Origin: a virus
Lineage: Duplodnaviria; Heunggongvirae; Uroviricota; Caudoviricetes
Strand: one strand, 5' to 3'
IMG/VR virus record: IMGVR_UViG_2529293142_000034
Location: 1 to 10,888 of that record
Length of the DNA: 10,888 bases
Part shown: positions 1 through 10,888 of the stretch, piece by piece
Position numbering within the stretch: position 1 is the stretch's first letter
Layout: each line of letters opens with the position of its first letter
The notes under the pieces: model-generated
Seen by the model: the letters and a program-made list of their open reading frames with translations, nothing else
Database searches by the model: none
What the model was told of the DNA's origin: nothing
Made by a program: the position numbers and the translations under genes

Positions 1-1263
1 ATGAAGCTCACAGCCAGACAGGTCGAGACCGCAAAGCCAAAAGAAAAAACCTACAAAATGGCCGACGGCGGCGGTTTGTATCTCGAGATTTCGGCTAAGG
101 GCTCTAAATACTGGCGCATGAAATACAGACGCCCCTCAGACAAAAAAGAGGATCGCCTCGCTTTTGGTGTTTGGCCTACTGTGACGCTAGCTCAGGCAAG
201 AGTAAAGCGCGATGAGGCTAAAAAGCTGCTAGTGCAGGGCATTGACCCAAAAGCCGAACAGAAAGAAGTTCAGGCCGAGAATTCGGGGGCATATACATTC
301 GAAACCATTGCTCGTGAATGGCACGCCAGTAACAAGCGCTGGAGTGAAGACCATCGATCGCGCGTTCTTCGCTATCTTGAGCTTTATATATTCCCTCACA
401 TTGGTTCGTCCGACATTCGTCAGCTCAAGACTAGCCACCTATTAGCCCCGATTAAAAAAGTTGATGCAAGTGGTAAGCATGACGTCGCGCAGCGTCTTCA
501 GCAGCGTGTCACGGCTATCATGCGTTATGCAGTACAGAACGATTACATCGACTCAAATCCAGCCAGTGATATGGCTGGTGCTCTATCTACAACCAAGGTG
601 CGACATTACCCCGCTTTACCCTCTAGCCGATTCCCTGAGTTTCTTGCACGTCTTGCTGCATATCGTGGCCGTGTAATGACACGGATCGCGGTTGAGCTTT
701 CCTTACTAACTTTTGTGCGTTCCAGTGAGTTGCGTTTCGCGCGTTGGGATGAATTCGACTTCGATAAATCTCTATGGCGCATACCTGCAAAACGAAAAGA
801 AATTAAGGGTGTGCGTTATTCGTATCGTGGTATGAAGATGAAAGAGGAGCATATCGTTCCGCTGAGTCGTCAGGCGATGAATTTGTTAGACCAGTTAAAG
901 CAGATTAGTGGTGATAAAGAGCTGCTTTTCCCGGGGGATCATGACGCAACTAAGGTTATGAGTGAAAACACAGTGAATAGCGCATTGCGTGCGATGGGAT
1001 ATGACACAAAAACCGAAGTCTGCGGGCATGGGTTTAGGACGATGGCACGTGGTGCGCTGGGTGAGTCAGGGTTATGGAGTGATGATGCTATAGAACGCCA
1101 ACTGAGCCATTCAGAACGTAATAATGTTCGGGCTGCCTACATTCACACTTCAGAGCATTTAGATGAGCGTAGGCTGATGGTGCAGTGGTGGGCTGATTAT
1201 TTAGATATAAATAGAATGCAATATGTGACACCGTATGACTTCGCAAAGGAAGAAAATCTGTAG
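1..1263 (+). CDS. int: Tyrosine recombinase, P4-type integrase (420 aa)
   Basis: Intact 420-aa ORF starting at ATG position 1. N-terminal region (LYLEISAKGSKYWRMKYR...) is typical of P4-family integrases; C-terminal catalytic region has HGFRTMARG (His-x-x-Arg) and a downstream Tyr (VRAAYIHTSEH). Confidence 0.93.
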   Translation: MKLTARQVETAKPKEKTYKMADGGGLYLEISAKGSKYWRMKYRRPSDKKEDRLAFGVWPTVTLAQARVKRDEAKKLLVQGIDPKAEQKEVQAENSGAYTFETIAREWHASNKRWSEDHRSRVLRYLELYIFPHIGSSDIRQLKTSHLLAPIKKVDASGKHDVAQRLQQRVTAIMRYAVQNDYIDSNPASDMAGALSTTKVRHYPALPSSRFPEFLARLAAYRGRVMTRIAVELSLLTFVRSSELRFARWDEFDFDKSLWRIPAKRKEIKGVRYSYRGMKMKEEHIVPLSRQAMNLLDQLKQISGDKELLFPGDHDATKVMSENTVNSALRAMGYDTKTEVCGHGFRTMARGALGESGLWSDDAIERQLSHSERNNVRAAYIHTSEHLDERRLMVQWWADYLDINRMQYVTPYDFAKEENL

Positions 1264-1302
1264 AAATTATATGCTAACAATATATAAAACTCTTATAGTA
1301 AT

Positions 1303-1332
1303 AAACCATCCATTATTTTTAATGGATGGTTT
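1303..1332. terminator. Perfect 12-bp inverted repeat (AAACCATCCATT / AATGGATGGTTT) with a 6-nt loop, between the convergent int and cargo genes; putative bidirectional terminator
   Basis: Palindrome read directly at 1303-1314 and 1321-1332, between the int stop (1263) and the cargo gene stop (1362-1364). The stem is AT-rich and there is no clean U-tract, so terminator function is uncertain. Confidence 0.4.
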
Positions 1333-1361
1333 AAGATGAATTACTAGTTTTATGATTGAAT

Positions 1362-3657
1362 TTAAATTACTTCGACATTTTGATCATCATTAGCACTTTG
1401 CTGAACGTCGACATTAATGTCATCATCATTCGGCAGAGCCTTATAATATTCTCCCATCATCATTTTATAATGTGCAGCATTATCGCTGTATTCAAATATT
1501 TTCTGGAATATATTGAGATTTTTACTAACCGAGTTTTGGTCTAGAGCAATGTAAAGATCGTCATTTGAATGATGTGAACCGTCATTAATCCAAGATATCA
1601 ATGAATTAAATGCTATTTTTTCATCACCATCAAAATGTTTTTCGAGTTTCCATACATTAAATCCACCTAAAATTTTAAAGTAATTTTCAAGAATTCTTCT
1701 CATTGTGTTTTGTACTGTTGTGCAATTAATATCAGGGCGCCTTATCTCACTCCATAGTAAATCATATGAAGTTTTAATTGGATTGCATGCATGGCTTTCA
1801 ATGAACGATAATTTATCCTTTTTCCTAATGACCCAAAATGTTTCATCAGGACGAGCAGTATCTAAATTTCTATTCATATCGAAAGTTAACTCTTTATGAA
1901 AATAAATATTGTGAGTTAGGAAAAAGACCTGTTTTATACGGCCATTATTGTCTCTAATGTCTTTTATAAGTTTTTTCATTAATGAGCTAACTATAAACAG
2001 AATATCACTATCTAAACTTGATATAGGATCATCAAAGACAACTACTCGATCGTTCATTACACCAGATGTTGAATTACTTCCTTTGATGAGATTATAGAAA
2101 TATAGGAATGTGATAAAAGTTTTCTCACCCTCACTGAGTGTGCTTAGGGCATTATCACCATTTTCACGTACGATTCTATAGCTAAACGAATCGGATGTCG
2201 GTGCAAGGCTAAAATTTTTGAAGCCAAATGATAAAAGTATCTTATTTATAGCAGTGATTGTTGGCGTGACACTGGTTCTTTTAGATTCCTCGCTGGATAT
2301 ATTTTCAATGATATCATCTAATCTGACTTTGTCTTTTTCTAAACCCTTAATTAACCCTTCCTTAGCTCTATTTAACTGTTCCTTATCAGTATTATATTTA
2401 TTTATTTTATCAGCCAGTTCAACTTTAACTATATAATGCCATATTTCTTTTGTTAGTTTTTCTCTTTCCATGCTCCTGTTTTTGTATAGTTCATTATTTT
2501 CAAAAACTTGATTGTTAGCTGCAAGAATGATGTCTAATAATTCTTTGCCAGGCTCTAGAAGTCCTGTCATAGCGACAGGTGTACTTAATTCAGCCAATTT
2601 TCTTTTTGCTTCATCTATATTCCTTGATAATATTGATAGAATTAATTTGGATTTTGTGTTAAACAAATCCAAATCAAGGAAGGCATAGTTCCCTTCATTT
2701 ATTTTCGCAACATATTCATCAAATAAACGATACTCATGAGTATAATTTTTTAGTAATACATTAATGCTTTCTGTTTTTTCTAAATATTTTGTGTCAAAGT
2801 AACTTTCTAAATCCGATTTCAAACTACTGGGCGTATTTTGTTGGCAAAATGGACATTTGGTTTCAAGGTTATCATAGTACTTTATCCCTTCTTTAACCCA
2901 GTCACTGTTATCTAGTTGCCTTATGATTTCGGCAACGCTTGCATCTTCTTTTCCAAGAATTTTCTCTTTCCATATTTCATCGTCAACTATTTTTTTATGT
3001 TGCTAAAATTTGGTAAGGGAATTATATTGTGAACTGTTAGCGAGTCTGAGTAAACACTACCAGCCTTCGATATTAAGTATGGTAACTGGTGTAAATCTAC
3101 TTCTTTTGAATATAGCTCCTCTAATACCTTTGATTTGAATTTTTCCTGGCTGCTTCTTAAACCTTCAAATGCTTTATAGAAGTAATCATCATGTTTTTCT
3201 TTTGATTCCAGCAATCATTTTTGAAATCCAATTCAATTTTTTCAAGTTTTTGATAGATACCTAAATTTGCATTATCATTGTTATTTAAATTTCTTTTCTT
3301 GGAATCTATTGAGCTTTGCTCTTTATCCCTTTGTTGTATCAATTTGTCTATGTTATCTGTGAGCTCTTTTGTTTCTTCACCTAAAGTAAAAATACCTTTA
3401 ATACTATCTCCAGAAAAATTATTTACAACAAAATCCCTGTTGTAGACATAAGGAGTTAATTGATTGTTGTTTTTCCATTTAATCTGGCAAGTTGGAAAGC
3501 CTAAAGCATTATGAATTATTTTGCTAATTGTAGTTTTTCCAGCACCATTTGAGCCATATATGTAATTGATTTTCATTAGAGGCATCATATATTGAACGTC
3601 ATTTCCATATGAACCGGCTTGAGAAACGCTTATAGACTCTATCATTATCTTTTTCAT
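1362..3657 (-). CDS. Cargo gene: RloC/PrrC-like ABC-type ATPase with central CPFC motif and C-terminal putative nuclease domain (about 765 aa when joined); interrupted in this sequence by two homopolymer frameshifts
   Basis: Three adjacent minus-strand ORFs (3157-3657, 2987-3214, 1362-2822) join into one frame if one base is added at the T5 run 3194-3198 and at the T7 run 2990-2996. Walker A YGSNGAGKTT is at 3535-3558; reading the 1362-2822 frame upstream of its TTG start gives ...KYYDNLETKCPFCQQNTPSS (CPFC at 2844-2855). Signature-like LSEGEK, Walker B/D-loop VVVFDDPISSLD (about 2025-2045) and H-loop FFLTHN follow. Family assignment (AAA_13 / RloC-PrrC-like) is from motif recall, not a search. 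Confidence 0.7.
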
Positions 3658-3736
3658 CCTTTAGCTTTGTGTGAGGGGCGTGTCAGTCACGGATTACTAT
3701 TGCAGAATATCCATTTGTTTCAAGATATGTTTTTAT

Positions 3737-3780
3737 ACAGTGGTAAATAAACACAGTGGTAAATAAACACAGTGGTAATC
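3737..3780. repeat. Tandem direct repeat, 16-bp unit ACAGTGGTAAATAAAC x about 2.7, lying 80-125 bp upstream of the cargo gene start
   Basis: Exact copies at 3737-3752 and 3753-3768, partial third copy at 3769-3780 (ACAGTGGTAATC); a related CAAGTGGTTTAGTG follows near 3791. Confidence 0.8.
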
Positions 3781-3880
3781 ACAAAATATTCAAGTGGTTT
3801 AGTGTCATAGAAAGTGAGCATCTACGCAAGAATGTACTAACTCTGAGTTTACAAAATTAAATAATTAATATGCGCGCGCA

Positions 3881-3899
3881 GTGCTTTCCCCGCCTCGCC
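3881..3899 (-). other. cos site: P2/P4-type 19-nt cohesive-end sequence GGCGAGGCGGGGAAAGCAC
   Basis: Reverse complement of 3881-3899 is exactly GGCGAGGCGGGGAAAGCAC, followed on that strand by CTGCGCGCG..., matching my recollection of the P2/P4 genome left end. It sits between the cargo locus and psu, as expected for an integrated P4. Confidence 0.8.
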
Positions 3900-3999
3900 C
3901 GCCCGCTTTGCGGGGCGGTTTTAATGCAGTTGCACTGACACGCTCAGACCGCGCCGGGAATGGCGCGGTTTGCAGAAAATGAGGCAGGGAAACGCATGC

Positions 4000-4033
4000 A
4001 AAGCCATGCACCTTATCGATGCATGGCTTTTTT
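4000..4033. terminator. Intrinsic terminator-like hairpin (10-bp stem AAAGCCATGC / GCATGGCTTT, 11-nt loop) with a 3-prime T-tract on the plus strand and an A-tract on the other side; probably bidirectional, just downstream of psu
   Basis: Stem pairs 4000-4009 with 4021-4030, followed by TTT at 4031-4033 (T-run 4028-4033). Lies about 30 bp beyond the corrected psu stop (4064-4066). Confidence 0.5.
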
Positions 4034-4063
4034 CAGTAAAAACGGGCGGATTTTCGGGGAATT

Positions 4064-4635
4064 TTACACTGACTGACGTGATGCCAGTTGCGCACTTTTA
4101 CGCGAAAAAATCATGTTCTGCGCAGGGGTGAATTTTTCACGGCTGTCATCCACCGAAGCCGCGTCAGGCCTGAATCCGATGGTCGTTAAAATGTCGCTAT
4201 CCTGTGCGGAATAATTAATTTTTCCCCCTTCGCAAGCCAGGACAGAAGGGCTTCACGCAGGGCATCTGTGGCACGCTGTATGGCACAGTTTCGGGCAATG
4301 GCCGTCAGCTCACTGTATCCCATCAGCTCCGGTGCCAGTGCCGCCGCCAGTGCTGTGCCGTGCTGCTGCATAAAATCATTCAGCCGGTCGCGGATGCTGA
4401 TGTGCTGAACGGCTTCATGCGAACGAATATAACGACCGGCGGCCTGATTCACCTGCCATTTTCTGACTTCGATAATATTGCGTAATTCGTCCAGGCGACT
4501 GACGTTTCTGCCTTCCCCGGACAGAAGCCGCAGATATTCCTGTTCGGCCGCAGCCAGCTCATTTTTGCGTTGCAGCCATGCTGCTTTGTTATTCTGACAG
4601 GTGTCAAAGGCCTGCTGTAAGGCTGTGCTTTCCAT
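4064..4635 (-). CDS. psu: Psu polarity-suppression / capsid-decoration protein (190 aa after a one-base correction); C-terminus out of frame here because of a homopolymer indel
   Basis: ORF 4186-4635 (149 aa) ends ...LSWLAKGEKLIIPHRIATF*. The adjacent frame reads KINYSAQDSDILTTIGFRPDAASVDDSREKFTPAQNMIFSRKSAQLASRQSV* to a stop at 4064-4066. The join needs one extra T in the T5 run 4219-4223 and gives 139+51 = 190 aa, the length of P4 Psu as I recall it. Confidence 0.85.
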
Positions 4636-4707
4636 CGTTATCTCTTTCTCATCATGCTGAAGAATAAAATACGGTGTGCGGCGACGGCCGGTGTTAACCG
4701 GCAGCCC

Positions 4708-5208
4708 TCATTCCAGACGCAGCGAATATGATTGTGTTTTTAAGCGTACTGGCGGCAGTTCCTGTTTTTCATGCAGGCTTTCTGCCAGTTCGTCCGGCGT
4801 GACCGGGCGGACAATGAAACGGTTGATGGTCTGAAGCGTTTTAAACACCAGACCACAGCCCGGATCCGTGCACACATAAAAACGCTCGGTGACTTCCTGA
4901 GACAGACGCCTCGATGTTCTTGACAGTGCAAGGCCTTTACATCTCCGACAACAATATCCGGTAACAAGCATTCTTTTCGGGCGTTTCATACTGCCGGAGG
5001 CTGACGTCAGTGAATCGCGGTATCTCTGTTTGCCTGAAATGTATTCCATTCCTGAATCTTTACTGTCAGAGAAAAAGCTTTCACTCGCTTCAAATGTCGC
5101 AGAGCAATAAATATTCCGGCACTGTGCAATCATTATCTTGGTGCCATCGTCCATGAAATGTGCGCGGCGGGTGTGAGCAACATGTCCACACGACGGGCAG
5201 TAAATCAT
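4708..5208 (-). CDS. delta: Delta late-gene transcription activator with two tandem Ogr-type zinc-finger domains (166 aa)
   Basis: Intact 166-aa ORF with two C-x2-C-x22-C-x4-C modules (CPSCGHVAHTRRAHFMDDGTKIMIAQCRNIYC and CCRRCKGLALSRTSRRLSQEVTERFYVCTDPGC). Its ATG (5208-5206) overlaps the sid stop as ATGA. Confidence 0.9.
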   Translation of the reverse strand: MIYCPSCGHVAHTRRAHFMDDGTKIMIAQCRNIYCSATFEASESFFSDSKDSGMEYISGKQRYRDSLTSASGSMKRPKRMLVTGYCCRRCKGLALSRTSRRLSQEVTERFYVCTDPGCGLVFKTLQTINRFIVRPVTPDELAESLHEKQELPPVRLKTQSYSLRLE

Positions 5209-5938
5209 GACAGCAGTCCTCTGGCCTTAAGCTCTGCTCCCTGCTGGTCTATTTTGTCCTGCCACACCTTGCGCTGTGCCGGTGTGCCTGCCACCTCATA
5301 ATCCATGTGCGGGAGTGTTGCCGCTGACAGTCCGGTCAGCCGGAGAACCGGCTCACCGGTGAGGCTGATTTGCATCTGTTTTATTTTCTGTTCCAGCGAT
5401 GATTTCACCTGCTGCATGACAGCCTTTTCCGGTGCGACGTAGCCCTGATGGCCGGTGGCGTTGGCGAGCGGATTTTCCTGTACCAGAATGCTCAGATGCA
5501 TTGCCCGGACAAGCGCCTCACAGGTTTCATTCAGGGCGTGTTCCAGCTCATGCTCTGCATACAGACTCAGCAGGTGATGATGTGCCTTCCGGTAGGCGGT
5601 GGCCGTGCTGTCACACGCCCCTTTCAGGCGTTCACGTTCAAAATTCAGCACCACGGCCAGATTGTCATATTCCTGTACCAGCTCCCGGCGTGCCACGCGC
5701 TCAATGTGGCGCTGTTTCAGCTCGTCGCTCAGGACACCACCGGCTGCACGAAAGGCTGTGCGCCAGTCATCAGCGTCATTTCCGTCGGCCTGCGCCAGCG
5801 CATTTTTTCCTGCTCTGCCCGTTCAATGGCCTTGACGGTCTCATCCATCAGTCGGGCGTTCTCAAGGTGGGCGGCTCTGGCCTTTTCCAGTTGTGCCAGT
5901 GCGGGTTGCAGATATTCAGGGATGGTGTTGTCAGACAT
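5205..5938 (-). CDS. sid: Sid capsid size-determination (external scaffold) protein (244 aa after a one-base correction); split in this sequence by a homopolymer indel
   Basis: ORFs 5729-5956 and 5205-5696 join if one T is added to the T6 run 5803-5808: ...AIERAEQEK + NALAQADGNDADDWRTAFRAAGGVLSDELKQRHIER + VARRELV.... Starting from ATG 5938 (GAGGAG Shine-Dalgarno 7 nt upstream) gives 45+36+163 = 244 aa, the P4 Sid length as I recall it. Confidence 0.85.
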
Positions 5939-5972
5939 TTTCCGGCTCCTCGTCACTTCAGGTTAAGAAAAT

Positions 5973-6028
5973 TGTGACGTACACCGGACAACAACACGAC
6001 GCATTGCAGATGTGCCAGTCCTGACACA
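5973..6028 (-). promoter_or_regulatory. Candidate late promoter for sid-delta-psu with two TGT-N12-ACA activator sites of the Ogr/Delta type, centres 38 bp apart
   Basis: TGT-N12-ACA read at 5973-5990 and 6011-6028. If the distal site is centred near -55, the start of transcription falls about 5964 and the proximal site near -18, leaving a roughly 25-nt leader before sid ATG 5938. The -55/-18 arrangement is recalled for P4 late promoters. Confidence 0.55.
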
Positions 6029-6106
6029 GGAGACTCATCCTCAGACCGGCAAGCCAGGAAAAGGTCGCAGGAAAAACCGGCTTACTGTTTGTTTTTTTAT
6101 ATTTTA

Positions 6107-6220
6107 CTGTTCACCTCTGTTCACCATAAGAAAAAAGATAAGTAATACAGTAAGTTAAAGGGTGAACAATCGCAGTAATGACTGTTCACCGTCTGTTCAC
6201 CACTGTTCACCCGTTCATGG
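6107..6220. repeat. Phased 9-mer repeats CTGTTCACC (five direct copies, one inverted, one degenerate) in the divergent control region between sid and alpA
   Basis: Direct copies at 6107-6115, 6117-6125, 6182-6190, 6193-6201 and 6203-6211 (10-11 bp spacing within each cluster); inverted copy GGTGAACAA at 6161-6169; degenerate CGTTCATGG at 6212-6220. Existence is certain; function is inferred. Confidence 0.8.
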
Positions 6221-6295
6221 ACTTTTTGTGCTGTTTATTACTTTTTATTTTTATTAATTAACTGAAATAAATAAGAAAAACAATTTGTATTTCAC

Positions 6296-6301
6296 TATAA
6301 T
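6296..6301 (+). promoter_or_regulatory. Consensus -10 hexamer TATAAT facing alpA; candidate early promoter element
   Basis: TATAAT at 6296-6301 in an AT-rich stretch; no convincing -35 at 17 bp spacing, so this is weak. Confidence 0.25.
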
Positions 6302-6490
6302 TTTTTCCAGCTCCTTCCAGAGCGTTTTTAAAAGCTATCTGGCGCTGATGTGCAAAAAACACACAGCCATTGTAAGGCTGCCGGAACAAATCCCCCCTGT
6401 TGCGTCTGCCAAAAATATTCACAAAATAAAGCGCTACCCCGAAGCCGGACGGACTTATCCGGTGCTGTATGGACATTACGAGGTAGCCCG

Positions 6491-6760
6491 ATGCTAAGCC
6501 TGTTTTTTCTCCCCGTCTCCTGCCCCTGTGACGCCACTGATGCCGCTGCCGGACATCACGCAGGTAGCGTTTTTTTACGCTGCCGGAAGTGATGCACCTG
6601 TGCGGCCTGTCACGCTCGACCATCTATGAACTCATCCGTAAGGGGGAATTTCCGCCGCAGGTGAGTCTTGGCGGTAAAAAATGTGGCCTGGCTGCACTCT
6701 GAAATCACCGCATGGATGGCCGGGCGCATTGCCGGACGCAAACGGGGGTACGACGCATGA
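6491..6760 (+). CDS. alpA: AlpA-family (Vis/excisionase-like) helix-turn-helix regulator; reading frame broken twice at homopolymers in this sequence
   Basis: Core at 6580-6702 reads [34 protein letters not shown]...; removing one A from the A6 run 6676-6681 continues as ...[29 protein letters not shown] (stop 6758-6760), a close fit to the AlpA-family pattern. No in-frame start precedes the core unless one T is added to the T7 run 6570-6576, which joins it to ATG 6491 (GAGG 7 nt upstream). N-terminal boundary is uncertain. Confidence 0.65.
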
Positions 6761-7158
6761 TGATGCCCGCTCTGCAAAAAGTCCCTTTTTCTGGCTTGCC
6801 TTTTTCCGGCATTTGCGGATATAGTTTTTCTGCTGCCGCAAAATCGGCAGCCGGGCGTGGAAACCCGAGCAATTCACAGGCGGCATATGACGCGCCATGC
6901 GTCTTTTTTTGTGTCGCAATCAACGCCACAGAGCGCCAGATTATGGTGTGGTGTGTGGTCAGTCGTGCAGATGGCATTCCGTGCATCCTGCCCGCGTCCG
7001 CTCATTATGCCGCAGAGTCAATGGTAGCTCAGGCGGGGCAGCCTCCGGGCTGGCCGGTATCCTGTGAAGCCGGTATTTCCACCCCCGTCTGGGCTATCGC
7101 CATCGAGCGTGGAAACTCCGGCGATAGCGTTATTTGCTATTCACAGGAGGCTGCCATC

Positions 7159-7356
7159 ATGGCTACAACCCTCACCCCCTCACACCCTGAATTTGTCTTT
7201 GTGTTTGCGGCTGTCCGTCGCGCAGACCGTCATCCCCGTATCTGCATGCTTCGCACCGTCGCCGGTGATGAACGCAGTGCCCGCCGTTCCCTTGTCCGTG
7301 ACTATGTGCTCTCCCTTGCTGCCCGTCTGCCGGTGGTGGAGGTGTCCCGTGCGTAA
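7159..7356 (+). CDS. Small early protein (65 aa), possibly an Icd-like cell-division inhibitor
   Basis: ATG 7159 preceded by AGGAGG at 7145-7150 (8-nt spacer); sequence [65 protein letters not shown]. The stop overlaps the next gene start. The Icd-like label is from weak recall of prophage annotations. The same frame is open upstream to 6757, so the true start could lie further upstream. Confidence 0.4.
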
Positions 7357-7636
7357 TAAAAAAGCCCCTCAGACCGTCTCAGCGCGTCATGACGCCCGTG
7401 AACACCTCAGCATTGAGGCTTACCATAAGCTCAACCGCGCCAGCGCCGTATCCCAGTTTGTTGGGGGTGATTTGATTCACCGTGAACTCTCCGGCCTGCA
7501 TCAGCTCTACATTCCGCATATTTTCAGCTACCTGAATGAAGATATTGATTTTGTGCTGAATGAGCTGAAAGCCAAAGGCCTGTGCCGCGATTTTCTCGCC
7601 CAGCAGAAAGACCGGGGAGACAGGACGCATGTTTGA
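7349..7636 (+). CDS. Small early protein (95 aa), possibly the epsilon (derepression) homologue
   Basis: GTG 7349 with GGAGG at 7338-7342; no in-frame ATG exists downstream, so the GTG start is required. It overlaps the upstream stop (GTGCGTAA) and the downstream start (ATGTTTGA). The epsilon assignment is by position and size only. Confidence 0.5.
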
Positions 7637-8084
7637 TTTTCCCCAGCCCGGTGAGATTTACCGTTCTGCCGGTTTTCCCGATGTGGCCGTGGTCGGCATT
7701 CTGGAAGACGGTATTCCGTGGGAAATGCCGTACCGCTGCCCGGACATTGTCTGGAACCCGTACCGCCGTAAATTCAGTATCCTTGTGCGTATCCTCGCTG
7801 ACGGGCGCACCACAGACATCCCGCTGGGGCGTTTTCTGCGGGAATTTACCTGTGACCGTCCTGACCTGTTTAAACGCAGCCCCGTAAACCGGCATGCGGT
7901 ACTGAAAGAAATGGCCGGAGACCCGGAATTACAGAAATGGCGGGAGAAATATCTGGATATTTACCCGCAGGCCCCTGTTCCGGTCAGCCGGGCGGCACCG
8001 GTGGCGCGGGAATGGCGGGAAATTCCCCGCACGGAGCCTGACCCGGAAATCACCCCGGATAACAGTTACCGCAATTATCTGTAA
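7629..8084 (+). CDS. Conserved early-operon protein, 151 aa (orf151-like)
   Basis: Intact ORF whose ATG overlaps the stop of the preceding gene; its size and position before alpha match the P4 left-operon layout as I recall it. Function unknown. Confidence 0.65.
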   Translation: MFDFPQPGEIYRSAGFPDVAVVGILEDGIPWEMPYRCPDIVWNPYRRKFSILVRILADGRTTDIPLGRFLREFTCDRPDLFKRSPVNRHAVLKEMAGDPELQKWREKYLDIYPQAPVPVSRAAPVAREWREIPRTEPDPEITPDNSYRNYL

Positions 8085-8219
8085 TTAAAAAACGACCCCC
8101 GAAAAATTAAATGTGCGTATTCGCGCAGGGATACGCACGTCTTCAGGAGACGCAGATATGCCTTATCAGTTAATGCAACCGGCACGGAATGCAGTCATCT
8201 GTCACAGGGAGGAAAACAA

Positions 8220-8540
8220 ATGAAAACACCCTTACCGCCCGTCTTACGCGCTGCCCTTTACCGTCGCGCTGTCGCCTGTGCCTGGCTGACCGTGTGCGAA
8301 CGTCAGCACCGCTACCCGCATCTCACCCTTGAGTCACTGGAGGCGGCCATCGCCGCTGAGCTGGAAGGCTTTTATCTGCGCCAGCACGGTGAGGAAAAAG
8401 GGCGTCAGATAGCCTGTGCCCTGCTGGAAGATTTAATGGAATCCGGCCCCCTGAAGGCCGCGCCGTCGCTGTCCTTTCTCGGGCTGGTTGTGATGGATGA
8501 ACTCTGTGCCCGTCACATAAAAGCGCCGGTACTGCACTGA
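8220..8540 (+). CDS. Conserved early-operon protein, 106 aa (orf106-like)
   Basis: Intact ORF with GGGAGG upstream of ATG 8220; it ends 14 bp before the alpha start. Function unknown. Confidence 0.65.
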
Positions 8541-8554
8541 AGGAGAACAACACC

Positions 8555-10888
8555 ATGAAAATGAACGTAACCGCCACCGTCAGCCATGCACTCGGCCACT
8601 GGCCGCGTATCCTCCCGGCGCTGGGGATTCAGGTGCTGAAGAACCGTCATCAGCCCTGTCCGGTCTGTGGCGGGAGTGACCGCTTCCGTTTTGATGACAG
8701 GGAGGGGCGCGGCACCTGGTACTGCAATCAGTGTGGTGCCGGTGACGGCCTGAAACTGGTTGAAAAGGTGTTTGGTGTTTCCCCGTCCGATGCGGCCGCA
8801 AAGGTGGCTGCCGTGACCGGCAGCCTGCCCCCGGCTGACCCGGCAGTGACGGCTGCCGCCGGTGCTGAAACAGACGCTGCCCGGAAGAACGCCGCCGCAC
8901 TGGCACAAACCCTGATGGCGAAAACCCGTCCCGGAACCGGTAACGCCTACCTGACCCGCAAGGGCTTTCCCGGCCGGGAATGCCGGATGCTGACCGGCAC
9001 ACACAGAGCCGGTGGCGTGAGCTGGCGTGCCGGTGACCTTGTGGTGCCACTGTATGACGACAGCGGCGAACTGGTTAACCTTCAGTTAATCAGTGCTGAC
9101 GGCCGTAAGCGCACCCTGAAAGGCGGACAGGTCAGGGGCACCTGTCACACCCTTGAAGGACAGAATCAGGCCGGAAAACGTCTGTGGATAGCGGAGGGAT
9201 ACGCGACCGCACTTACCGTGCATCACCTGACCGGTGAAACGGTGATGGTGGCGCTTTCTTCCGTGAATCTCCTTTCTCTGGCCAGCCTTGCCCGGCAGAA
9301 GCATCCGGCCTGTCAGATTGTCCTTGCTGCTGACCGTGACCTCAGCGGTGACGGCCAGAAAAAAGCCGCCGCAGCCGCAGATGCGTGTGAAGGTGTTGTT
9401 GCCCTGCCGCCGGTCTTCGGTGACTGGAATGATGCCTTCACGCAGTACGGCGGGGAAGCCACCCGTAAGGCCATTTATGATGCCATCCGGCCACCGGCTG
9501 AAAGCCCGTTCGACACCATGAGCGAAGCGGAGTTTTCCGCCATGAGTACCAGCGAAAAGGCCATGCGTATCTATGAGCATTACGGCGAGGCGCTCGCGGT
9601 CGATGCCAACGGCCAGCTTCTGTCCCGCTATGAAAATGGTGTCTGGAAGGTGCTGCCGCCACAGGACTTTGCCCGGGATGTGGCCGGGCTGTTTCAGCGT
9701 CTGCGCGCGCCGTTCTCCTCCGGGAAGGTGGCCTCCGTGGTGGACACCCTGAAGCTGATTATTCCGCAGCAGGAAGCCCCCTCCCGCCGCCTGATTGGCT
9801 TTCGTAACGGCGTGCTCGACACGCAGAACGGCACGTTCCACCCGCACAGTCCGTCACACTGGATGCGCACCCTGTGTGATGTGGATTTCACCCCGCCAGT
9901 GGAAGGGGAAACGCTGGAAACCCACGCCCCCGCGTTCTGGCGCTGGCTTGACCGTGCCGCCGGTGGCCGTGCGGAAAAACGCGACGTGATTCTGGCCGCA
10001 CTGTTTATGGTGCTGGCAAACCGCTACGACTGGCAGCTCTTTCTGGAGGTGACCGGTCCCGGCGGCAGCGGCAAAAGTATCATGGCCGAAATAGCCACCC
10101 TGCTGGCCGGGGAGGATAACGCCACATCGGCCACCATTGAGACGCTGGAATCCCCGCGTGAACGTGCCGCGTTAACTGGCTTCTCACTGATACGCCTGCC
10201 GGACCAGGAAAAATGGAGCGGCGACGGTGCCGGACTCAAGGCCATCACCGGCGGCGATGCGGTGTCCGTTGACCCGAAATACCGGGATGCGTACTCCACG
10301 CACATCCCGGCGGTGATTCTGGCCGTGAACAATAACCCGATGCGCTTCACCGACCGCAGCGGCGGCGTGTCACGCCGGCGGGTGATTATTCACTTCCCTG
10401 AACAGATAGCCCCGCAGGAGCGCGACCCGCAGCTTAAGGACAAAATCACCCGCGAGCTGGCGGTCATCGTGCGTCACCTGATGCAGAAATTCAGCGACCC
10501 GATGCTCGCCCGGTCACTGCTTCAGTCCCAGCAAAACTCAGACGAGGCGCTGAACATCAAACGGGATGCCGACCCGACGTTTGATTTTATCGGCTATCTG
10601 GAAACCCTGCCGCAGACCAGCGGCATGTATATGGGGAACGCCAGTATCATCCCGCGCAATTACCGTAAATACCTCTATCACGCCTATCTGGCCTACATGG
10701 AGGCAAACGGCTACCGGAACGTACTCAGTCTGAAAATGTTCGGGCTGGGGCTGCCGGTGATGCTGAAGGAATACGGACTGAATTACGAGAAGCGCCATAC
10801 CAAACAGGGGATACAGACCAACCTGACGCTGAAAGAGGAAAGCTACGGCGACTGGCTGCCAAAATGTGACGACCCTGCAACAACCTGA
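8555..10888 (+). CDS. alpha: Alpha protein: P4-type primase/helicase (zinc finger + Toprim primase + D5-like NTPase), 777 aa, complete
   Basis: AGGAG 9 nt upstream of ATG 8555. N-terminal zinc-binding motif CPVCGGSDRFRFDD...CNQCG, Toprim-like acidic region (EGYATAL ... LAADRDLSGDG) and Walker A GPGGSGKS at 10055-10078. The 777-aa length equals that of P4 alpha as I recall it. Confidence 0.93.
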   Translation: MKMNVTATVSHALGHWPRILPALGIQVLKNRHQPCPVCGGSDRFRFDDREGRGTWYCNQCGAGDGLKLVEKVFGVSPSDAAAKVAAVTGSLPPADPAVTAAAGAETDAARKNAAALAQTLMAKTRPGTGNAYLTRKGFPGRECRMLTGTHRAGGVSWRAGDLVVPLYDDSGELVNLQLISADGRKRTLKGGQVRGTCHTLEGQNQAGKRLWIAEGYATALTVHHLTGETVMVALSSVNLLSLASLARQKHPACQIVLAADRDLSGDGQKKAAAAADACEGVVALPPVFGDWNDAFTQYGGEATRKAIYDAIRPPAESPFDTMSEAEFSAMSTSEKAMRIYEHYGEALAVDANGQLLSRYENGVWKVLPPQDFARDVAGLFQRLRAPFSSGKVASVVDTLKLIIPQQEAPSRRLIGFRNGVLDTQNGTFHPHSPSHWMRTLCDVDFTPPVEGETLETHAPAFWRWLDRAAGGRAEKRDVILAALFMVLANRYDWQLFLEVTGPGGSGKSIMAEIATLLAGEDNATSATIETLESPRERAALTGFSLIRLPDQEKWSGDGAGLKAITGGDAVSVDPKYRDAYSTHIPAVILAVNNNPMRFTDRSGGVSRRRVIIHFPEQIAPQERDPQLKDKITRELAVIVRHLMQKFSDPMLARSLLQSQQNSDEALNIKRDADPTFDFIGYLETLPQTSGMYMGNASIIPRNYRKYLYHAYLAYMEANGYRNVLSLKMFGLGLPVMLKEYGLNYEKRHTKQGIQTNLTLKEESYGDWLPKCDDPATT

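Follow-up and report, generated by a model that had tools for sequence, protein, structure and literature searches.

The DNA analyzed here, a window of 10,888 bp (positions 1 to 10,888 of the Caudoviricetes record IMGVR_UViG_2529293142_000034 in IMG/VR), is a P4-like satellite that extends from the start of its integrase gene (int) to the stop of its primase gene. From the int stop at position 1263 to the cohesive-end site (cos) at 3881 to 3899, the only long reading frames are three collinear open reading frames (ORFs) on the minus strand, which the first-pass annotation had taken for segments of a single gene lying with its upstream region between int and cos. Restoring two bases joined them into a 761-residue protein that is identical to database protein P0001 and differs by one residue from WP_001615855, so that reading is upheld: the int-cos interval is one minus-strand gene plus its own upstream and promoter region, located at a P4-like hotspot. 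The gene, its segments, and the motifs of the joined protein are listed here.

1362 to 3645, minus strand: RloC-like (AAA_13 / PDC-S06) gene, 761 codons when intact, carrying two −1 frameshifts in this window.
3657 (or 3645) to 3157, minus strand: first cargo ORF, matching AAA_13 positions 3 to 142.
3214 to 2987, minus strand: middle cargo ORF, 75 residues.
2822 to 1362, minus strand: last cargo ORF, 486 residues, matching AAA_13 positions 271 to 713.
3532 to 3555, minus strand: Walker A motif (P-loop) GSNGAGKT, residues 31 to 38, with G31, N33, G36, and K37 invariant.
2844 to 2855, minus strand: predicted zinc-hook motif CPFC, residues 265 to 268, at the apex of the coiled coil, with C265, P266, F267, and C268 invariant.
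2010 to 2138, minus strand: ABC signature LSEGE (residues 504 to 508) and Walker B/D-loop VVVFDDPISSLD (residues 535 to 546), with invariant columns.
1911 to 1913, minus strand: switch histidine, His579, invariant.
1428 to 1850, minus strand: C-terminal domain of putative anticodon-nuclease type, about residues 600 to 740.
1698 to 1700, 1686 to 1688, and 1572 to 1574, minus strand: triad residues R650, E654, and H692, respectively, with R650, R651, E654, and H692 invariant.

A search of the joined translation against profiles, the first check that the earlier annotation had proposed, gave a match of residues 11 to 719 to Pfam AAA_13 (positions 3 to 713 of 713, E = 2.8e-159) and a best PADLOC match of residues 1 to 736 to the PDC-S06 profile (positions 1 to 727 of 732, E = 6.4e-259). 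The PADLOC PrrC model aligned to residues 487 to 727 (E = 3.6e-10) and the LmuB model also matched (3e-18); among NCBIfam models there was no family-level match to the joined protein, and only weak P-loop matches were returned. We recovered 1,805 homologues in a search of 5.8 billion proteins. Among these, proteins with approximately 43% identity across 97% of the length bear the JGI name "wobble nucleotide-excising tRNase," the activity of RloC, and the label "translation-disabling ACNase" is attached to more distant ones in Streptococcus prophage records.

Invariance was assessed in an alignment of 63 homologues that are 40 to 85% identical to the joined protein. The head motifs of an ABC/SMC-like ATPase, the long insert, and the extra C-terminal domain that had been described in the first-pass annotation all hold in this alignment, with D539-D540-P541 and D546 of the Walker B/D-loop region invariant in addition to the residues listed above. 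Approximately 370 residues, including the CPFC motif, separate Walker A from the signature motif, and in an AlphaFold2 model (predicted local distance difference test score, pLDDT, of 83) CPFC is flanked by long helices spanning residues 93 to 152 and 286 to 455. The top structural matches of the model were Rad50/SMC heads, and its neighbors included the LmuB, AriA, and retron PtuA ATPases. The C-terminal domain modeled alone (pLDDT 84) had no significant neighbor among solved structures, and the comparison therefore lent no structural support to the HEPN-superfamily fold published for the C-terminal domain of RloC (Anantharaman et al. 2013, PMC3710099). The same set of features was used to define RloC: the motifs of an ABC ATPase, a CXXC zinc hook within a coiled-coil insert, and a triad at the C terminus (Davidov and Kaufmann, PMC2610378). 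Judged by its sequence, the joined protein is RloC-type, with a Rad50-like ABC head, a predicted zinc-hook coiled coil, and a C-terminal nuclease-type triad.

The cargo differs in composition and distribution from the DNA around it. Its G+C content is 29 to 34% across the int-cos interval versus about 50% in the flanks, and megablast located it in only 3 of 5426 complete Escherichia coli genomes, whereas the cos-psu backbone is present in 952 of the 5426, with homology beginning at ∼3874. The first-pass annotation had placed the variable cargo of a P4-like satellite between 1264 and 3880; because the cargo is rare and backbone homology starts at ∼3874, these limits bound it correctly, and the identification of the element is confirmed by the presence of int, cos, psu, delta, and alpha and by homology breaks at ∼3874 and 1264. 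In strains WL164 and BEN5202 the gene is intact, with a length of 2,286 nt and the annotation "AAA family ATPase" (WP_001615855.1), and in RM10740 it is cut by an IS3 element (locus L003, 8722 to 9929). The gene is flanked by int and psu in every related P4-type locus examined, and the orthologues of other E. coli and of Serratia aquatilis, 78% and 84% identical, are found at this psu-int position as well. P2-like prophages carry paralogues that are 52% identical, next to the portal gene in their cos-proximal hotspot. In one of these prophages, the P2-like prophage of E. coli D7 (L004, 11801 to 13921), the RloC-like paralogue adjoins a gene for a KAP-family P-loop NTPase, which may be a second defense candidate.

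The gene is bounded by the following predicted elements.

3696 to 3723, minus strand: predicted sigma-70 promoter from a consensus scan, with −35 TTGAAA, a 16-nt spacer, and extended −10 TGcAATAGT.
3737 to 3778, no strand assigned: perfect 16-bp tandem repeat of ACAGTGGTAAATAAAC, 2.6 copies (Tandem Repeats Finder score 84), just upstream of the promoter.
1302 to 1333, minus strand: hairpin 3' of the cargo gene, between two convergent stops, with a 14-bp stem (−20.1 kcal/mol, z = −7.3 versus shuffled sequences).

Both promoter hexamers are invariant upstream of the orthologues that are 78% and 84% identical (E. coli and Serratia aquatilis). The upstream regions from E. coli and Serratia (L008 and L009) share an invariant block, ACTGTATAAAwwCATAyCTTGAAACAAAT-N5-TTCTGyAATAGT (3696 to 3735), that spans the promoter and about 15 bp upstream of the −35 hexamer. 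Because RloC responds to DNA breaks, we looked for a LexA (SOS) box and rejected one as a candidate: the 20-mer consensus had no match within three mismatches, and CTGT-N8-ACAG was not found within one mismatch in 3640 to 3880. The only motifs of this kind near the promoter are CTGT-N8-ACmA, which resemble half a LexA box. The ACAGTGGTAAATAAAC repeat is present in 3.6 copies in loci L001, L002, and L012 and in 2.6 copies in the other loci that span it, independently of the haplotype defined by single-nucleotide polymorphisms (SNPs), and is absent from the orthologue loci. The hairpin at 1302 to 1333 is probably a transcription terminator; it went uncalled by a consensus terminator scan because its stem is rich in A+T.

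Relative to the intact allele of WL164 and BEN5202, the window has two 1-nt deletions and a single SNP (3507) and lacks one of the 16-bp repeat units upstream. The two deletions are the frameshift sites.

3194 to 3198, minus strand: site A, codon 151, a sense-strand A5 run in place of the A6 of intact alleles (T6 to T5 on the plus strand).
2990 to 2996, minus strand: site B, codon 219, a sense-strand A7 run in place of the A8 of intact alleles (T8 to T7 on the plus strand).

Together, the frameshifts leave a P-loop fragment of 162 residues. The A5 allele of site A was seen only in this strain's data, and the 75-residue middle ORF, which requires both frameshifts, has just one further occurrence, on a contig of Logan run SRR057628. 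Site B behaves differently: in 16 loci (including L011 to L022), run lengths of A7, A8, and A9 are spread over at least three SNP haplotypes, with only about ten SNPs in the entire 2.5-kb locus. In an exact-sequence look-up, the 486-residue product downstream of site B was present on 15 to 28 contigs from unrelated NCBI, ENA, and Logan samples, the upstream products of 219 and 221 residues (from A7 and A9, respectively) on about 17 contigs, and intact variants on about 170 contigs (158 + 2–4 + 8, with WP_001615855 accounting for the 158). Thus, A8 makes up about 85 to 90% of copies and roughly 10% are off at site B. To sample tract lengths without bias, the tract and its flanking sequence were looked for in JGI metagenome contigs and in IMG/VR, with 0 matches in each. 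Other natural lesions also occur, namely a Walker A G36E substitution, an N-terminally truncated product of 532 residues, a 204-residue fragment with a further frameshift, and the IS3 insertion of RM10740 (proteins P0144, P0140, and P0143 and locus L003).

The cargo is very probably a single-gene defense module of the RloC family whose copy in this window is off. The frameshifts look mostly real, and that at site B is a recurrent natural allele. The first-pass annotation had proposed a candidate anti-phage effector in this DNA, but the window copy of the RloC-like gene is probably inactive, since it combines the natural frameshift allele at codon 219 with a second frameshift upstream of it. 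The site-B run is not conserved in the orthologues, which have GAAAAT or GAAAAG at this position, and our interpretation is therefore that the run is a mutational hotspot at which the gene is lost again and again, perhaps because it is costly, and not a switch that is being maintained.

Several points weigh against this assessment. The link to the characterized RloC proteins of Geobacillus and Acinetobacter is made through profiles, motif spacing, and database names, and neither sequence nor profile searches revealed an RloC or PrrC structure in the PDB. AAA_13 is absent from the supplementary file of cloned and tested systems in the survey of this hotspot (Rousset et al. 2022, PMC9122126), and it seems not to have been among the systems tested there. 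With regard to the frameshifts, site A is known from the data of one strain alone, and all indels in the left half of the window relative to its relatives are −1 changes in homopolymers, which is also the signature of sequencing error.

The variation at site B invites the suggestion that slippage in the poly-A run lets the satellite or host turn a costly suicide nuclease on and off (a contingency, or phase-variation, switch), with off alleles that may leak small amounts of full-length protein through ribosomal or transcriptional slippage. Three tract lengths on at least three haplotypes, in a 2.5-kb locus with so few SNPs, are consistent with this idea, as is the copy number of the promoter-proximal 16-bp repeat, which varies independently of haplotype. 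In addition, the A7 allele reads A_AAA_AAA followed by TAG, so that a −1 slip would be expected to rebuild the wild-type NIKKIVDD. We nonetheless consider such a switch unlikely: the run is missing from the orthologues, runs of A are to be expected in a gene that is rich in lysine and has 31% G+C, the great majority of copies are A8, and the irreversible lesions (IS3, G36E, truncations, and the second frameshift) are more in keeping with sporadic loss than with a switch that is maintained. The fuller form of the proposal, in which the A8 run, perhaps together with the 16-bp repeat, is a true expression switch with reversible A7 and A9 states and the A7 allele could give traces of full-length enzyme, is decidedly doubtful; if correct, it would mean phase-variable abortive infection in mobile elements of E. 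coli.

It is also rather improbable that the gene is intact in the actual strain and that both frameshifts are homopolymer under-calls of the sequencing platform. In the left 6 kb, which is well conserved, all five indels shorten an A/T run by a single base, and their frequency rises with run length (1 of 1 8-mers, 1 of 1 7-mers, 2 of 12 6-mers, 1 of 30 5-mers, and 0 of 73 4-mers); site A and the 75-residue ORF are confined to this strain's data, and the low accession number of SRR057628 would suit an early-generation data set. Genuine frameshift mutations favor homopolymers too, however, and the A7 allele of site B was found in NCBI Pathogen Detection, in ENA metagenomes, and in unrelated Logan assemblies, on three haplotypes and beside A9. 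The psu and sid frameshift alleles of the window are likewise common to many other assemblies. Sequencing error as the whole cause was thus rejected, given the recurrence of the site-B, psu, and sid alleles in many independent assemblies, and could apply only to site A.

To the family membership, anatomy, locus, and frameshifts described above, published work on the Geobacillus and Acinetobacter RloC proteins adds a plausible trigger, set of tRNA targets, and anti-phage phenotype for the RloC-type module. The conserved promoter of an intact allele would drive weak expression in the lysogen, where the zinc hook and DNA-dependent ATPase would act as an internal switch that holds the nuclease silent. 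DNA ends or breaks made during infection would stimulate ATP hydrolysis and release the nuclease, which would cut tRNA anticodon loops and excise the wobble base. Loss of this base would create a lesion that is hard for phage tRNA-repair enzymes to reverse; translation would halt and the infection abort, protecting the clonal host, the satellite, and its helper.

A different activity is conceivable for the same architecture, namely that of a Rad50/SMC-like DNA-sensing ATPase devoid of ribonuclease (RNase) function that acts on DNA or through a separate nuclease, in the manner of LmuB, AriA, or PtuA. The structural neighbors named above, the LmuB profile match, and the lack of a recognizable solved fold for the C-terminal domain point in this direction. 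We regard this as highly improbable because the locus holds a single gene and the R-x3-E...H residues, which are essential for tRNA cleavage in both RloC and PrrC (PMC2610378), are invariant in the 63 homologues down to 40% identity and lie inside the part aligned with the PrrC profile. Hardly more credible is a PrrC-like arrangement in which a host type I restriction-modification (R-M) system silences the nuclease in trans and a phage anti-restriction protein triggers it: Davidov and Kaufmann did propose a possible in-trans interaction of RloC with R-M (PMC2610378) and the PrrC profile matches the C-terminal half, but hsd genes are unlinked here and in related loci, the protein has an internal zinc-hook/ATPase switch that PrrC lacks, a mobile satellite cannot depend on a particular host R-M system, and AbaRloC is reported to be activated by inducers of double-strand breaks even in an R-M-deficient host.

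The RloC-type module is embedded in a satellite with the following layout.

1 to 1263, plus strand: int, an intact P4-type tyrosine integrase of 420 residues (Pfam Arm-DNA-bind_3, Phage_int_M, and Phage_integrase), forming the left border of the hotspot and convergent with the cargo gene.
3881 to 3899, minus strand: cos cohesive-end sequence, an exact 19-mer and the right border of the hotspot.
4186 to 4635, minus strand: psu fragment.
4708 to 5208, minus strand: delta.
5205 to 5956, minus strand: sid fragments.
8555 to 10888, plus strand: alpha, a primase-helicase.

The 19-mer GGCGAGGCGGGGAAAGCAC matches the P2/P4 cos sequence exactly, with a chance expectation of 0. The int stretch shows 99.9% DNA identity to the int gene annotated beside tRNA-Leu in WL164, BEN5202, and RM10740. 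No tRNA gene was found within the window; the same element adjoins tRNA-Leu in three complete E. coli genomes, and that attachment tRNA-Leu lies outside the window. We observed that psu is cut to 149 residues by a T6 to T5 change at 4219, an allele present on 56 public contigs, and that sid is split by a T7 to T6 change at 5803, with the fragment alleles on 13 and 21 contigs. Given these psu and sid alleles, the satellite looks partly decayed, with int, delta, and alpha intact. Divergence from the BEN5202 element is greatest at 6000 to 7200, across the immunity (cI-like) region and the small ORFs lying upstream of alpha; this stretch has 75 of the 141 substitutions and many small indels and has the look of another variable or recombined segment.

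Earlier publications already cover the family, the idea of the hotspot, and the occurrence of this accession in it. The psu-int locus is a hotspot of phage-defense systems and holds gop-beta-cII in P4 itself (Rousset et al. 2022, PMC9122126), in agreement with what the first-pass annotation had stated about the interval. Table S1A of that study lists WP_001615855 at the P4 hotspot under the label AAA_13, along with a split "AAA_13 + AAA_13" entry, and in Table S5B system #5 of the P2 hotspot is AAA_13, recorded 420 times and annotated "RloC-like"; the P2-prophage paralogues that are 52% identical to the cargo protein belong to this family. Prophage-borne ABC-HEPN proteins have been considered likely phage-exclusion factors (Anantharaman et al. 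2013, PMC3710099). Our results confirm that the hotspots of P2 helpers and of P4 satellites both house genes of the RloC anticodon-nuclease type as mobile single-gene cargo, and make the intact allele WP_001615855 a reasonable candidate for a plating assay. The one new element, a modest one, is that natural E. coli have repeatedly lost the gene through the same poly-A run, a hint that carrying it is costly to fitness.

Among known systems, the Rad50/SbcC/SMC proteins share the ABC head interrupted by an antiparallel coiled coil whose apex bears a CXXC hook; they have no C-terminal RNase domain and act on DNA with a separate Mre11/SbcD nuclease. The PADLOC PDC-S06 profile matches the cargo protein end to end, PDC-S06 being a computational candidate label with no stated mechanism, and our literature search found no paper testing it. 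PrrC, which is about half the size, also joins an ABC-type NTPase to the same kind of C-terminal nuclease domain with its triad. PrrC is reported to have no coiled-coil/zinc-hook insert, which the cargo protein does have, to reside always within a type I R-M locus that silences it, and to make a single nick 5' of the wobble base (PMC2610378). Neither the cargo gene of the window nor its counterparts in the related loci are flanked by hsd genes, and this absence together with the large insert places the cargo protein with RloC rather than PrrC; of the dual RloC/PrrC-type designation in the first-pass annotation, therefore, the RloC part stands (zinc-hook coiled-coil insert, standalone gene) and the PrrC part does not. 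The AAA_13 "RloC-like" system #5 occupies the helper-phage site (gpQ-gpA) instead of a satellite and is far commoner, with its 420 occurrences against 3 of 5426 complete genomes for the cargo allele.

The closest likeness is to RloC itself, as represented by GkaRloC and AbaRloC. GkaRloC is a tRNase that excises the wobble nucleotide, is inhibited by Zn2+, and is activated by DNA-dependent ATP hydrolysis; its zinc-hook cysteines are C288 and C291, and its triad of R692, E696, and H737 corresponds to R320, E324, and H356 of EcoPrrC (PMC2610378). At 761 residues, the cargo protein falls within the family range of 658 to 897 and shares the Walker A, signature, Walker B/D-loop, and switch-histidine motifs as well as the CXXC hook, a predicted zinc binder, in a coiled-coil insert. 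It also shares the Arg-x3-Glu...His triad, matched by motif and spacing rather than by pairwise alignment to GkaRloC, with 38 residues from Glu to His versus 41. RloC genes stand alone and are rarely linked to R-M systems, and the cargo gene is likewise standalone and has no R-M partner; it differs in riding on a P4-like satellite next to cos.

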